A DNA stretch of 39,659 nt from an uncultured Candidatus Saccharibacteria bacterium (GTDB taxonomy: Bacteria; Patescibacteriota; Minisyncoccia; Phycocordibacterales; CAIZIN01). This document shows, one piece after another, positions 35,006 to 38,194 of the stretch. Position 1 is the stretch's first letter; every line of letters begins with the position of its first letter. The translations under genes were made by a program, and so were the position numbers. Location of the stretch: positions 1-39,659 of the forward strand of contig CAYZZT010000002.1 in assembly GCA_964483025.1 (NCBI GenBank), given 5' to 3'. Under the pieces are notes generated by a model. It had not been told where the DNA came from, made no database searches, and saw only the letters and a program-made list of their open reading frames with translations.

Positions 35006-35121
35006 AACTTGGATCACACATAATTTCTTGCTAGAAATTTGTTCGATCCCGACTCGGCTCGTCAGCCTCCGTCTTTGAATCGTATCCCATACGATTCAAC
35101 CCCGCATTCGCGAGGATGACA
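35006..35121 (+). repeat. 116-bp repeat, copy A (exact reverse complement of 38079-38194)
   Basis: I checked it base by base: 116/116. Contains internal palindromes TTGAATCGTAT..ATACGATTCAA and AATTTCT..AGAAATT. Confidence 0.95.
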
Positions 35122-35183
35122 GCGGGGAGGGAAAGAGCTTAGCTGGAGATGGTATAAAAGTCCCGTATTTTCATTTAGAACAT

Positions 35184-37490
35184 TTACAAGATCTTCAGGA
35201 ATTCGTCCTCTGTCAATACCTGAATTCCGATCTCCTTTGCTTTACTGAGCTTCGACCCCGCATTCTCCCCCACCACCACATATGTAGTTTTTTTAGAAAC
35301 CGAGCTTGATACATCCCCACCGAGAGAACGAATTTTTTCTTCTGCCTCTATGCGAGAAAGTTTATCCATTGTTCCCGTGAGCACAAAAGTCATGCTTGCA
35401 AATTTTTTCACACCACTTTCTTGTTTTGGATTTTCTACCTCAATCTGTTTTAGCAAATCTTTTAGTAAATTTTTATTTGAAGAATTTTCAAACCATTCCA
35501 CCAAAGACTTTGCCACAATATCCCCCACACCAAAAACTTTCATAAAATCTTCTTCCGTTGCTTTTGCAATCTTTTCAATACTTCCAAAATTATTCGCAAT
35601 ATCATAGGCAGTCTCTTCACCAACCTGCGGGATAGAAAGTGAAATTATCAATCTTGGGAGTGTAACTTTTTCTGCTTTAGCAATTGCTTCAATCAAATTA
35701 TTTGTCGATTTTTCTTTAAACCCTTCTAGCCCCAAAATATCTCCAGCTTTTAATGTGAACAAATCGGCATATGTAGACATAAGCCCAGCATCAAGCAAAG
35801 CATCAACAATTCTTGGGCCTAAGCCATCAATATCAAATGCTCCCTTACCTACAAAATGATACCATTTTCTTTTTTCTTGTTCGTATGAATTATGCACACA
35901 TTTCCATGCAACTTGCCCCGGTTCCCTTTCTATAGATCCGTCACCGCCACAAACAGAAACTTTTTTAGGGAAATGATATTCTTTTTCATTACCCTTTCGT
36001 AATTCTTTCAAGACTTTTACAATTTTCGGGATTACATCTCCAGCTTTTTCCAAAATCACAGTATCACCTATTCGCACATCAAGTCTTCTTATTTCATCTT
36101 CATTATGAAGTGTCGCTCTAGAAACTGTCGAGCCAGCTACCAGAGTCGGCTTTAAATGAGCCACAGGTGTCACTACGCCTGTGCGCCCAACTTGAAGGAC
36201 AATATCTTCTACAATAGTTGTTACCTGCTCGGCTTTAAATTTATAAGCGACACCAAAGCGTGGAGACTTTCCTGTATAGCCAAGCGCTTCTTGAATTTTT
36301 ATTGAATTTACTTTTATCACTATTCCGTCTAAACCATAATCGAGCTTATCTTTTTCTTTTTCCCAATGTTTATAGAAATCTTCTATTTCTTTTATATTTT
36401 TACAAACTTTATGATGTGGATTTGTTTTAAATCCAAGTTTTGAAAGGAATTTTATTTCTGCATCTTGACTTTCAATATAATCATCTCGCTCCAGTTTGTC
36501 ATCCTCCTCTCGTTTGTCACCCTCTCGTGTATTGTCATTCCCGCCCCCGTATTCACGAGGATAAACTCCTGCAGAATCCATGATAATCTGTTTAGAATTT
36601 TGAATTTTGAATTTTGAATTTGTTTCGAATTTCGGATTTCGGATTTCGGATTTTACCGACTGTGAGCTCGGGATGGGCCCCGAGCGCAAGGACGGAAGCT
36701 GACGAGCTGAGTCGTGGCCAGAAGATTTTTCAGTAGAAAAATACTTGTGGATTCCGGCCTTCGCCGGAATGACAGAAGAGTAGGAGTCTATATCATATAT
36801 AAAAGAATTTAAATTCCTACTCGATGCAATTTTTGGATCAAGCTGGCGGATGGAACCGGCAGCAGCATTTCTAGTATTTGCAAAAGGTGCCTCACCTTTT
36901 TTTTCTCTTTCTTTATTTATTCTCTCTAATTCTTTTTTAGAAAGCCAACACTCACCCACAGCAACCAAATCAACTTTTTGACTAAGCAAAAGTGGAATGC
37001 TTTTAATAGTTTTAAGATTCGATGTTACATCTTCACCAATCTCTCCATCGCCCCGTGTTGCCCCTTGTACAAATTCACCATTTTTATATGTGAGAACCAT
37101 TTTAAGTCCATCAATTTTAAGCTCTACACAATATTCTAATTCCTCACTAGCAAGTGAATCATCTTTCTCTATTAATCTTTTTATTTTTTCATCCCATTTT
37201 ATAAGCTCGGCAAAGTCAAAAACATCATCATATGACCATTGCTTTACTTGATGCTTTACTTTTTTAAATTCTTTCAAAGGAATGCTTCCCACCCTTTGTG
37301 TTGGGCTTGTATCATTTTTAAGCTCTGGATATGCCTCCTCAAGCGAAATAAGCTCTTTTAAAAGAGAGTCATATGCTTCGTCACTAATCTCCGGCCTATC
37401 TTCTGTGTGGTATTTATGTGAATGGAAAGAGATGAGACTTTGGAGCTTAGCGGCCCTATCCTTAATATCTTTGGGTATTTGCCTTACCAT
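35184..37490 (-). CDS. ligA: NAD-dependent DNA ligase carrying a ~98-aa repeat-derived insertion
   Basis: Adenylation motif [11 protein letters not shown] fold, HhH region, and BRCT ([24 protein letters not shown]). 768 aa versus about 670 for typical LigA. The start overlaps the upstream pilin stop (TAATG). Confidence 0.92.
36480..36776 (-). repeat. composite repeat insertion inside ligA, in frame
   Basis: Contains a ~113-nt element about 90% identical (by eye) to 38821-38933, palindromic units at 36749-73 and 36534-63, and 7-mer tandems GAATTTT x~4 (36595-36621) and ATTTCGG x3 (36629-36649). Confidence 0.85.
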
Positions 37491-38056
37491 TAGTTATTAT
37501 CGTATTCTACACTATATCCTCTTTCAAGGCGACGGGAGTTGTTTTTGTCACAAGTATTGTAGCCACGAGAGTCAATTTTTGTTTTTGCTTGACCTGCATC
37601 AACATATTTAATTACAGCAACATCTGCACAGGGCTTTGCTTCAACTTCTACAGTTAAATTATATTCCATATACATTGTAAAAGTAGAAGTTGCTGAATCA
37701 GAAGTAGGAAGAGGATCAGTTTCCACAAGTACAGAATTTCCATTACATTCTATTGAAGGTATGAGGGTTGATTCACTCGAAGTTGCAAAAGCGGTGTGAG
37801 CAAGATCATAATATTGTGCACATTCTAAACCAGAATCTGCAGCATAAAAAGCAAGCTGTGAGTCCCGTCCATTGCCAGAAAGCTTCACCTCTTTCATTGT
37901 AATAGCCACAATTCCAAGCCCAAGGGCAAGGACAAGACTAGAAACAATTACGGCAAATAAAATCGTAAAAGCAGACTGTTTGTCATTCCTGCGAAGGCAG
38001 GAATCCAGTCTGTAGAATACTAACATGGATTTTTTATTTTGATTTTTGTTTCTCAT
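37490..38056 (-). CDS. type IV pilin-like (PilX-like) protein with repeat-containing leader
   Basis: [23 protein letters not shown] hydrophobic N-terminal helix and [12 protein letters not shown]. The leader [17 protein letters not shown] is encoded by palindromic unit 37982-38012. Confidence 0.7.
37982..38012 (+). repeat. 31-nt palindromic unit, exact inverted copy of 38211-38241
   Basis: GTCATTCCTGCGAAGGCAGGAATCCAGTCTG versus CAGACTGGATTCCTGCCTTCGCAGGAATGAC. Confidence 0.95.
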
Positions 38057-38078
38057 TTTTATTATATAACCTTTCTTG

Positions 38079-38194
38079 TGTCATCCTCGCGAATGCGGGG
38101 TTGAATCGTATGGGATACGATTCAAAGACGGAGGCTGACGAGCCGAGTCGGGATCGAACAAATTTCTAGCAAGAAATTATGTGTGATCCAAGTT
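38079..38194 (-). repeat. 116-bp repeat, copy B (inverted relative to copy A)
   Basis: Exact reverse complement of 35006-35121. Lies in the intergenic region upstream of the 188-aa pilin gene. Confidence 0.95.

Follow-up and report, generated by a model that had tools for sequence, protein, structure and literature searches.

Within the window, the whole 39,659-nt stretch of DNA analyzed here, an NAD-dependent DNA ligase gene (ligA) and a pilin-like gene are bracketed by two copies of a 116-nt sequence in opposite orientations. The earlier note had described this inverted pair as exact, and we confirmed it with a repeat search and a script: 35006-35121 (copy A) is the reverse complement of 38079-38194 (copy B) at 100% identity, with a gap of 2957 nt between the arms. 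The positions it gave relative to the genes were also correct. Copy A ends 62 nt 3′ of the stop codon of ligA, which lies on the minus strand at 35184-37490. Copy B begins 22 nt 5′ of the 188-aa pilin-like ORF, also on the minus strand (37490-38056), and the stop of this ORF overlaps the ligA start. A second inverted pair proved slightly longer than claimed (37981-38018 and 38205-38242, 38 nt, 95% complementary), and the core said to be shared with other repeats, GACGGAGGCTGACGAGCCGAGTCG, occurs four times in the window at up to three mismatches, against zero expected from shuffles. As proposed, the 116-mer is multi-hairpin, consisting of four consecutive hairpins with a DNA fold of -28.1 kcal/mol (z = -6.3); folded as RNA in a 181-nt context, it gave z = -5.6.

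The 116-nt arm can be read as two nested parts. Its first 22 nt and last ~10 nt form an Ssn-related motif (SRM; NTS in Neisseria), a strand-specific ssDNA hairpin with a TGTCAT head that is targeted by small GIY-YIG Ssn nucleases, which cut a few nt upstream of it (Neisseria meningitidis SsnA, Nat Commun 2025; PMC11893778). Inserted exactly at the 3′ base of this hairpin is an ~85-nt module of three hairpins, P1-P2-P3. Hairpins in the window match the published NTS CGTCATTCCCGCGMAVGCGGGAATCYRG as well as the published, degenerate SRM search pattern, HGTCWYN(0-2)YYVSBRHN(0-5)WNVSBRGN(0-2)RNCYNB. There are two strict matches to this pattern (34442-34469, plus strand, and 36747-36774, minus strand), compared with a mean of 0.03 in 100 dinucleotide shuffles, and at least three further SRM copies in the window deviate only by compensated stem changes. 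The 116-mer's own SRM fits the pattern in its head and stem but fails the strict form, because the inserted module has moved its 3′ tail away from the hairpin. Ssn may therefore no longer bind this SRM. The features considered below are as follows.

31455-31662 (+): tRNA-linked, diverged relative of the module; covariance-model match 31581-31648, 13.9 bits
34442-34508: SRM doublet upstream of gatA, with a strict match at 34442-34469 (+) and a near match at 34481-34508 (-)
34938-34989 (+): SRM partner of copy A, its loop replaced by a P3-like hairpin; weak covariance-model match 34911-34982
35006-35121 (-): copy A, composite repeat, head at 35121, module sharing the strand of the ligA/gatC mRNA; covariance-model match 35008-35076 on the minus strand, 90.2 bits
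35184-38056 (-): the bracketed genes, ligA (35184-37490) and the PilX_N-type pilin-like gene (37490-38056)
36468-36770: in-frame insert of 101 codons in ligA, assembled from repeat modules: SRM with a loop insertion (36533-36579, +), AT-rich module, three-hairpin module (36688-36756, +, antisense to ligA) and strict SRM (36747-36774, -)
37981-38018 (+): SRM-like hairpin within the 5′ coding region of the 188-aa pilin-like ORF, encoding part of the leader
38079-38194 (+): copy B, composite repeat, head (TGTCAT) at 38079; covariance-model match 38124-38192, 90.2 bits; SRM head and hairpin 38079-38100, P1 38101-38125, P2 core 38127-38149, P3 38152-38188, SRM tail GATCCAAGTT 38185-38194
38205-38242 (-): SRM partner of copy B, near-consensus TGTCATTCCTGCGAAGGCAGGAATCCAG, forming with B the doublet 38079-38242; outer arm of the 38-nt inverted pair with 37981-38018
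38821-39210 (-): leader of a 311-aa pilin-like ORF, 130 codons made of repeats: SRM 38819-38846 (+), module copies 38837-38905 (-) and 38996-39064 (-), partial P3 38955-38993 (-) and truncated core 39090-39132

The split of an SRM by the module can be followed in a related genome. The MAG ELA362 (L095) encodes a LigA C-terminal fragment (residues 490-768) with 91% identity to the window LigA, the highest among the loci retrieved. The left flank of its ssn gene is a plain SRM, TGTCATCCTCGGGTACTCCCGGG followed directly by GATCCAAGTT, and the right flank is the same SRM with P1-P2-P3 placed at the junction of these two segments; this anatomy is exactly that of the 116-mer. The uninterrupted form of the window's own SRM, TGTCATCCTCGCGAATGCGGGGATCCAG, was found at five other loci (L003, L020, L056, L068, and L091).

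Each composite arm, together with the plain SRM adjoining it, makes up a head-outward doublet (34938-35121, with a linker of 16 nt, and 38079-38242). These doublets end in inverted SRM heads, measure 164-184 nt and are non-coding. They resemble the SRM-ssn-SRM cassettes of relatives, which end in the same way and of which the L095 cassette even has a composite arm, but they contain no ssn. Since they are built like these cassettes without the nuclease gene, we regard the doublets as non-autonomous elements of the MITE/REPIN/BIME kind. The earlier note's suggestion of a MITE- or REP-type repeat is supported by what we found elsewhere: each arm represents a small dispersed repeat that is non-coding and folds into several hairpins. 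Near full-length copies lie at unrelated sites in related genomes (98% identity over 112 nt in L044, 95.5% in L063, and a further copy in L053), and dispersed copies in related MAGs are 93-98% identical, TGTCAT and GATCCA being their sharp boundaries. The family is thus like MITEs in its terminal inverted repeats, its small size, its lack of coding capacity, and its multiple copies; no target-site duplication of fixed length flanks the doublets or the 116-mers themselves, nor those copies found in L044, L053, L063, and L069 (six full-length copies inspected).

In the window, a covariance model found five full copies of the core-containing module, all within 34.9-39.1 kb. They form part of a dense SRM/module cluster at 34.4-39.2 kb that supplies in-frame insertions to ligA and to pilin leader peptides. 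The ligA insert lies in a loop of the adenylation domain, and mosaic inserts at this one site differ in length between sister species; the L068 orthologue of the 311-aa pilin-like ORF is without the repeat leader. Proteins therefore tolerate such repeats in frame: an essential DNA ligase carries mosaic inserts of 43-101 codons, and a pilin leader carries 130 codons. Rickettsia palindromic elements (RPEs) similarly are palindromic repeats lying in frame within protein-coding genes (PMC1779305, PMC10969869), and in both cases essential genes tolerate the inserts where the protein segment is dispensable or forms a surface loop (at this locus, the adenylation-domain loop of ligA and the leaders of the pilins). 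Unlike RPEs, the inserts described here are mosaics of several module types whose lengths vary between sister species; the likeness is one of insertion mode, with no sequence relationship seen.

We searched for the nuclease that would recognize these hairpins. The 39.6-kb window contains no ssn gene (single-domain ~94-aa GIY-YIG, cd10448), and no Y1 transposase (IS200/IS605-like, RAYT) is present among its ORFs. Pfam GIY-YIG proteins of ~90 aa are encoded in a related MAG (L063) and at L089 and L095. Among 80 ssn loci drawn from many phyla, 48 have strict SRMs, usually one on either side in inverted orientation, and L089 likewise has an SRM on each flank. The L095 gene, the sole ssn in ELA362, has an in-frame TAG. 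An ssn-like unitig of 355 nt was present in all four of the best-matching sequencing runs (X1-X4) at 9-11x, which is the single-copy depth of the window's genome, and the window's strain probably carries ssn. The unique parts of the L089 cassette are absent from X1-X4, and hence the L089 contig represents another organism.

The perfect identity of the two arms had been attributed to recent transposition or gene conversion. A recent copy event is plausible, as copy B is structurally variable between near-identical strains. A contig from another assembly (JGI; L088) carries copy B with 116/116 identity in the same place and orientation, and is identical to the window through 38194, after which the linker is replaced. 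Runs X1 and X4 contain the junction that joins the pilin 5′ end to copy B; it is absent from X2 and X3. In X2 and X3 the ligA-side unitig reaches 17 nt deeper into the repeat, the expectation if the second copy is missing there. Internal unitig depth of the repeat was 1.5-2.9x single copy in all runs, a range that gives no clean copy count. A 103-nt X3 unitig that skips copy B was considered as an empty allele and set aside as not assignable, since both its ends lie within SRM repeats. Given the differences at copy B between near-identical strains, zero divergence probably marks a young copy.

Perfect 116-bp inverted repeats 3 kb apart are a competent substrate for RecA, and the earlier note had inferred that inversion of the segment would detach pilin-ligA from the promoter of the upstream pilin operon. 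In a switch of this kind, the arms would act as RecA or invertase sites that flip pilin-ligA and uncouple it from that operon as a form of phase variation. The bracketed and neighboring genes include pilins, a classic target of variation, and a large serine recombinase is encoded at 28277-29935. However, this recombinase lies beside a tRNA in a PrimPol-carrying integrated element ~5 kb off and looks like the integrase of that element; no recombinase was found between 30 kb and 39.6 kb, and no invertase adjoins the repeat. The order and orientation of pilin-ligA-gatC-gatA are identical in three related species (L067, L068, and L069), and all assemblies spanning copy B are in the window orientation, with the window, L088, and a 2818-nt JGI/NCBI contig, whose gene spacing around copy B equals the window's, sharing their junctions at copy B. 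Inversion between perfect 116-nt repeats alters no 31-mer, and k=31 unitigs are compatible with it; it would nevertheless turn the essential ligA away from its operon, and the repeat unit also occurs singly at unrelated loci. Known invertible switches (hin/gin, fim, shufflons, and pilin inversion) share with this locus the inverted repeats around a pilin-containing segment, but they use recombinase sites of 14-30 bp rather than 116-nt arms of a dispersed family, have an adjoining invertase, and change orientation, whereas a single orientation was seen here in all assemblies and relatives (k=31 unitigs being blind to inversion). We therefore consider programmed or frequent inversion very unlikely. 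The proposal of a MITE-flanked composite, with the arms as transposon-like ends and pilin-ligA as cargo, draws on the identical inverted ends around a gene pair and on their origin from a dispersed family. It fits poorly with the absence of a transposase inside and of target-site duplications, and with the presence of ligA and the pilin gene at the ancestral syntenic position in relatives that have no copy B. Moreover, the heads of A and B face inward, toward ligA and the pilin gene, opposite to those of SRM-ssn-SRM cassettes, and identity between the two sites is limited to 116 nt, the partner arms and linkers being different. We give this composite unit almost no credence.

One copy, or the orientation of the segment, might instead stem from metagenome mis-assembly at the repeat: the window is metagenome-type sequence, Logan unitigs break at every repeat module, and the window linker 38196-38207 is absent from the four best-matching runs. 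Such an artefact is extremely unlikely given that the independent L088 assembly holds the identical copy B with the same left flank, that unitigs span three of the four junctions (both sides of A in all four runs, and the left side of B in X1 and X4), and that synteny with relatives supports the orientation. A role in RNA was also weighed. RNase III processing stems bracket rRNAs, and on a common transcript of the pilin genes, ligA, and gatC, should one exist, the arms could pair into a 116-bp duplex enclosing pilin188-ligA, an RNase III stem that would set the stability or stoichiometry of the segment. All genes from 39.6 to 33.0 kb point the same way, with spacers that are short or overlap, the two arms complement each other exactly, and intrinsic terminators in the spacers are not above chance, as holds for promoter-like and terminator-like sites across the region. 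Against this, four stable local hairpins per arm compete with long-range pairing, no RNA-seq run containing the region was found, and copy B is absent from L068 and missing or different in close strains, which makes any such role dispensable. We consider an RNA stem unlikely.

Altogether, we favor the view that the 116-bp inverted repeat is probably two opposed copies of one non-coding composite, an SRM split by the module; nothing points to a role as an inversion switch. Copy B would most likely have arisen by a recent copy or conversion event, hence the perfect identity. For Ssn, cleavage of ssDNA and an influence on transformation have been published, but neither SRM mobility nor transposase activity (PMC11893778); for this reason we infer the mechanism of spread, which would probably involve ssDNA intermediates and depend on an Ssn-type nuclease supplied in trans. 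If the parallel with Neisseria holds, SRMs beside genes would trigger cleavage of incoming ssDNA in natural transformation and so modulate recombination at pilin/ligA. The arm pair could in principle recombine and invert the 3-kb segment, as an accident rather than by design.

The resemblance to the Neisseria system is close: a hairpin here, TGTCATTCCCGCGAAGGCGGGAATCCAC, is nearly identical to the NTS, the motif is strand-specific and oriented, the repeats cluster around surface-protein (pilin) genes, and SRM-ssn-SRM cassettes occur in relatives of the window. Here, in contrast, the host belongs to the Patescibacteria (CPR), many copies lie within ORFs compared with only 2% of NTS being intragenic in N. 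meningitidis, and an 85-nt module disrupts the SRM, giving a composite that the Neisseria paper does not describe (PMC11893778). Mosaic arrays of short palindromes with other conserved modules, in head-to-head doublets, are also a feature of NIMEs (RS units flanked by dRS3) and of E. coli BIMEs and REPIN-RAYT, for which a selfish or domesticated single-strand-specific enzyme has been proposed. Unlike REP/REPIN-RAYT, the head here is TGTCAT and not GTAG, no RAYT (Y1 HUH) gene was seen, and the enzyme in relatives is of the GIY-YIG type; also unlike NIMEs, BIMEs, and REPINs, the internal three-hairpin module is conserved and occurs alone beside tRNA genes.

This module is conserved across many Paceibacteria with strong covariation. 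Its structure is that of a three-helix junction in which one hairpin, GAC-GGA-[4 bp]-GACG-[4 bp]-GA-GUC, is invariant and a long one contains a bulged A and a conserved G-U pair. Covariation is seen in the stem enclosing the GACG loop (GGCU/AGCC, AGCU/AGCU, GCGC/GCGC, GCAC/GUGC, and ACGC/GCGU). Rfam 15, including hammerhead, twister, pistol, hatchet, and HEARO, gave no match to the module at gathering thresholds; at E values up to 5 there were only weak FtrB matches (23-30 bits against a cut-off of 66), on SRM hairpins and none on the module. Three known RNAs were considered and rejected. For a hammerhead ribozyme, the CUGACGA box is not conserved and lies within the covarying stem, and there is neither a GAAA/UH arrangement nor an Rfam match. 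The bulged A of P3, 8 nt from the end, and the AC terminus recall domain VI of a group II intron, but P2 is unlike domain V and 85 nt is too small. P2 has the tandem G-A pairs of a K-turn or C/D-box RNA but a 1-nt bulge only, and the C/D-like letters are not conserved.

Elsewhere, the module lies just 3′ of tRNA or tmRNA genes, flanked by direct repeats of 15-62 nt that begin in the T-loop. Its sites are the T-loop-like C-R-A-T-T-C-C of tRNA/tmRNA genes, one protein-gene 3′ end and, in this lineage, SRM hairpins; directly 5′ of the core, a guide-like segment of 6-12 nt complements the initial bases of the target that flanks the element. The window contains a diverged relative of this form, in which CCAGTCCCCGCAAC, the 3′ end of tRNA-Met (31455-31468), recurs at 31649-31662. 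At 31459-31522 the tRNA-Met end and an inverted copy form a perfect 30-bp hairpin, P2/P3-like hairpins come next, and no empty-site polymorphism was found for this mini-element. The genes 3′ of the motif at 38 loci are unrelated housekeeping genes. A serine recombinase is encoded ~1.3 kb from the motif at L034, an observation that explains nothing. No exact core match was found in viral contigs, and no contig was found encoding the exact window LigA or GatC protein.

Mobile elements integrate in the T-loop region of tRNA and tmRNA genes, and CTX phage attP(+) and integron attC are folded single-strand recombination sites. The tRNA-linked module is like these in its direct repeats, from T-loop C56 through the tRNA 3′ end, in its use of tmRNA genes, and in an inverted copy of the repeat start that can fold back on it into a duplex. 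Unlike them, module elements are non-coding, only ~90-250 nt long and without an integrase nearby, they have a highly conserved three-hairpin core with strand-specific G-U pairs, and one of their sites lies at the 3′ end of a protein gene, where the repeat exceeds 62 nt. We found no class of tRNA-linked miniature elements like the module in Rfam or the literature searched, and no report there of such an element in CPR bacteria. We tentatively suggest that Paceibacteria might harbor an undescribed class of insertion elements, tiny (about 90-280 nt), non-coding and self-contained, with this module at their core. One possibility is that the module, folded as single-stranded DNA, is a recombination substrate comparable to those of CTX phage or integron attC; another is that it is a small RNA, either catalytic or a guide, that has a copy in DNA.

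The unsupported pilin/ligA inversion switch can thus be replaced by a concrete anatomy of Ssn-type hairpin repeats, and the 85-nt module offers a lead, open to direct testing, toward a structured RNA or miniature mobile element of a new kind. Ssn hairpin repeats, described only in 2025 in Neisseria, are abundant here in a CPR bacterium and are clustered at pilin genes as in Neisseria. The host probably depends on pilus-mediated DNA uptake and, if Ssn-SRM indeed modulates transformation in episymbionts, this would bear on how reduced genomes control incoming DNA.

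The inverted repeats reported in the earlier note are real. A repeat search and an identity check confirmed that positions 35006-35121 (copy A, minus strand) are the exact reverse complement of positions 38079-38194 (copy B, plus strand), with 100% complementarity over 116 nt and 2957 nt between the two arms. The second inverted pair is also genuine and spans 38 nt at 95% complementarity (37981-38018 and 38205-38242). The observation is correct and far above chance. Every gene in the repeat region is encoded on the minus strand; copy A occupies the ligA-gatC spacer, and copy B the spacer separating the two pilin genes. 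Repeat families of this kind occur, within the 39.7-kb window, only at 34.4-39.2 kb. The genes of the region are as follows:

33005-34447, minus strand, gatA
34561-34854, minus strand, gatC
35184-37490, minus strand, ligA
37490-38056, minus strand, PilX_N-type pilin-like gene, the stop of which overlaps the ligA start
38275-39210, minus strand, 311-aa N-methyl-motif pilin-like gene
past the window end (incomplete), minus strand, additional pilin-like ORF

Outside the repeat region, the window also encodes polysaccharide synthesis genes and the following features:

2621-10807, type I restriction-modification system (hsdR, hsdS, hsdM)
25200-27854, plus strand, primase-polymerase
28277-29935, plus strand, large serine recombinase
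30228-30905, minus strand, LAGLIDADG ORF

An OLD-family AAA/TOPRIM nuclease gene is inserted between hsdR and hsdS. The primase-polymerase and recombinase genes belong to a plus-strand block with reversed GC skew (23362-29935), probably an integrated mobile element, whose end coincides exactly with a tRNA gene that contains an intron. This minus-strand tRNA gene appears to be split by a group I intron (29972-30292, minus strand; Rfam score 84 bits), with apparent halves at about 29936-29971 and 30200-30237; ARAGORN made no call for the split gene. The LAGLIDADG ORF is directly upstream of it (region 29936-30905).

The 116-nt repeat is not an assembly artefact, as judged from junction-spanning unitigs and two independent contigs. 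Between 90% and 94% of the 31-mers of the region are present in four freshwater metagenome runs (X1-X4) at a depth of about 9-15x, and unitigs span both the left and the right junction of copy A in all four runs and the left junction of copy B in X1 and X4. A separately assembled JGI contig (L088) is identical to the window over 37967-38194, including all 116 nt of copy B, and in a 2818-nt JGI/NCBI contig the two pilin genes are likewise 218 nt apart. The nearest LigA relatives (75-91% identity) come from Patescibacteria/Paceibacteria MAGs, as do all 66 loci with exact matches to the 24-nt repeat core, which represent diverse environments.

To what kind of repeat do the arms belong? The 116-mer folds into four successive hairpins, the first of which, with a TGTCAT head, is a member of a ~28-nt hairpin family scattered over the region (for example, TGTCATTCCCGCGAAGGCGGGAATCCAC at 34442). 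These hairpins are near-identical to the Neisseria dRS3/NTS sequence CGTCATTCCCGCGMAVGCGGGAATCYRG. They also fit the published pattern of the Ssn-related motif (SRM), which has two strict matches here against 0.03 expected, and several further copies carry compensated stem changes. The nuclease Ssn, a GIY-YIG protein of ~94 aa, binds SRMs in single-stranded form and cleaves only one strand, at a site a few nucleotides upstream; inverted SRMs typically flank ssn genes, and transformation of N. meningitidis by NTS-flanked DNA is about five-fold lower when SsnA is present (PMC11893778). The sub-threshold Rfam matches in the region were all to Francisella sRNA B (FtrB), scoring 23-30 bits where the cut-off is 66, and all fell on SRM hairpins (34437-34529, 36736-36796, 37950-38041, and 38172-38265), which suggests that FtrB in Francisella overlaps an SRM-like repeat.

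Ssn-sized Pfam GIY-YIG proteins are encoded in three retrieved loci (L063, L089, and L095), and a scan with the L089 protein returned more than 580 homologues across phyla; strict SRMs lie at 48 of the best 80 of these ssn loci, mostly on both sides. The most informative locus is L095 (MAG ELA362), where a LigA C-terminal fragment is 91% identical to that of the window, the highest value among retrieved loci. Codon 59 of its ssn homologue (434-715) is an in-frame TAG, reflecting either a pseudogene or a sequencing error. To the left of ssn is a plain SRM, TGTCATCCTCGGGTACTCCCGGG/GATCCAAGTT; to the right, this SRM recurs in inverted orientation, split exactly at the slash by a three-hairpin module of 87 nt. 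The window 116-mer has this right-flank anatomy, TGTCATCCTCGCGAATGCGGGG, then an 85-nt module, then GATCCAAGTT, and the uninterrupted form, TGTCATCCTCGCGAATGCGGGGATCCAG, was found in five related loci. Both 116-nt arms are copies of one composite hairpin repeat of the Ssn type. Each 116-mer forms a head-outward doublet with a plain SRM (34938-35121 and 38079-38242), and these doublets resemble the ssn cassettes of relatives but lack ssn; between the two doublets, the composite arm alone is identical, whereas the partner arms and linkers differ. All four runs contain a 355-nt ssn-like unitig that bears a terminal SRM; its depth, 9-11x, equals that of the window genome, and the strain therefore probably encodes the nuclease.

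The earlier note had proposed that the arms are substrates for inversion of the pilin-ligA segment or could delimit a MITE-flanked composite unit, and neither reading, as an inversion cassette or as a composite transposon, is supported. The order pilin-ligA-gatC-gatA and the shared orientation of these genes are kept in three sister species (L067, L068, and L069; LigA 75-80% identical), and no recombinase adjoins the repeat, the nearest being about 5 kb away. Inverted junctions were found in no assembly; the k=31 Logan unitigs are blind to such an event because inversion between perfect 116-nt repeats alters no 31-mer. Against a composite transposon, no target-site duplications were found, and the heads of the window arms point inward, unlike those of ssn cassettes. 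The repeats themselves vary by species: the ligA-gatC spacer is repeat-free in L067, has one antisense module in L068, and has both a sense and an antisense module in L069, and the pilin spacer of L068 has no equivalent of copy B.

Copy B also differs among almost identical strains. L088 departs from the window exactly at 38195, right after the 116-mer, and has a distinct sequence in place of the 14-nt linker; none of the four runs contains the window linker (38196-38207). The junction between the pilin 5' end and copy B (38033-38078) is present in X1 and X4 and absent from X2 and X3 even at 90% likeness, with the flanking genes at equal depth in all four. The unitig leading from ligA extends 17 nt deeper into the repeat in X2 and X3 (to 35075, not 35092), as would be the case without a branch caused by a second copy. 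Candidate unitigs for an "empty" allele start and stop inside SRMs and are thus not assignable to the locus. The pattern is consistent with some members of the population having gained copy B recently, through copying or conversion from copy A or another copy, which would account for the zero divergence of the arms.

Repeat modules have also entered coding sequence. In ligA, a 101-codon in-frame insert of repeat modules (36468-36770) falls in an adenylation-domain surface loop; the sister species L067, L068, and L069 have different inserts at this site (about 43-65 residues aligned), and the more distant L071, L074, and L077 have none. In the 311-aa pilin-like ORF, repeat modules make up the whole of a 130-codon leader (38821-39210) that separates a conserved MRNIFKK start from the RSRAFTLVE prepilin motif; the leader of the L068 orthologue is 15 residues. 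The C-terminal domain of this pilin is the sole strongly diverged stretch between the window and the near-identical L088 (34 substitutions in 330 nt; 38378-38704), and SRM clusters adjoin it, recalling the higher diversity of dRS3/NTS-adjacent genes in Neisseria.

The module that splits the SRM has a conserved architecture around the exact core across 68 distinct sequences: a hairpin of variable sequence (P1), a P2 of the form GAC-GGA-[4 bp]-GACG-[4 bp]-GA-GUC, and P3, a 16-bp hairpin that has AGCA as its loop and includes a bulged A and a conserved G-U pair. In a 51-sequence alignment, 96% of cells were paired, compared with 34-48% for slid partners, and 17 of 23 pairs showed compensatory changes, a count matched by 0 of 500 shuffles, with the caveat that the search pattern partly fixed P2, though not P3. 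Because of its G-U pairs, the structure is specific to one strand. The module corresponds to no Rfam family. A covariance model detected five full copies in the window and more in relatives, one of them adjoining ssn.

Beyond the SRM-rich lineage, 26 of 60 loci have the module 18-300 nt downstream of a co-oriented tRNA gene (in L024, a tmRNA gene); the genes nearby are unrelated housekeeping genes, and no integrase is among them. Of 65 cases, 18 have direct repeats of at least 12 nt on either side of the module; the rate in mismatched controls was about 5%. Where checked against the tRNA (e.g., L018, L021, and L035), they run from T-loop C56 to beyond the tRNA 3' end; example lengths are 20 nt (L018), 22 nt (L021 and L035), 25 nt (L050), and 28-29 nt (L005 and L009). 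In L029 (about 3489-3750), the repeat exceeds 62 nt and comprises the final ~70 nt of an ORF of 737 aa together with downstream sequence; this element therefore duplicated the 3' end of a protein gene, not a tRNA end. Just before P2 is a 6-12-nt inverted copy of the direct-repeat start, which can pair with sequence after P3. The window holds a diverged example after tRNA-Met (31455-31662), with the architecture of the tRNA-linked modules of other Paceibacteria: the tRNA 3' end, CCAGTCCCCGCAAC, is repeated 194 nt downstream, and between the repeats are a perfect 30-bp hairpin (tRNA end and inverted copy) and diverged P2/P3-like hairpins. No empty-site reads for it were seen in the four runs.

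Read by eye, the right junction is ...GTGT/GATCC or ...GTG/GATTCC at SRMs and ...GTGAC/CGATTCC or /CAAGTC at tRNAs, so that SRMs resemble the T-loop target. We infer that SRMs in the window lineage were invaded by the module, an independent miniature element. It may work as a folded recombination site of single-stranded DNA, or else as a small RNA with a guide or catalytic function. The composite Ssn-type repeat is a new form of a recently described kind of repeat, in a new phylum, and the module embedded in its arms appears to be undescribed and merits follow-up in its own right.
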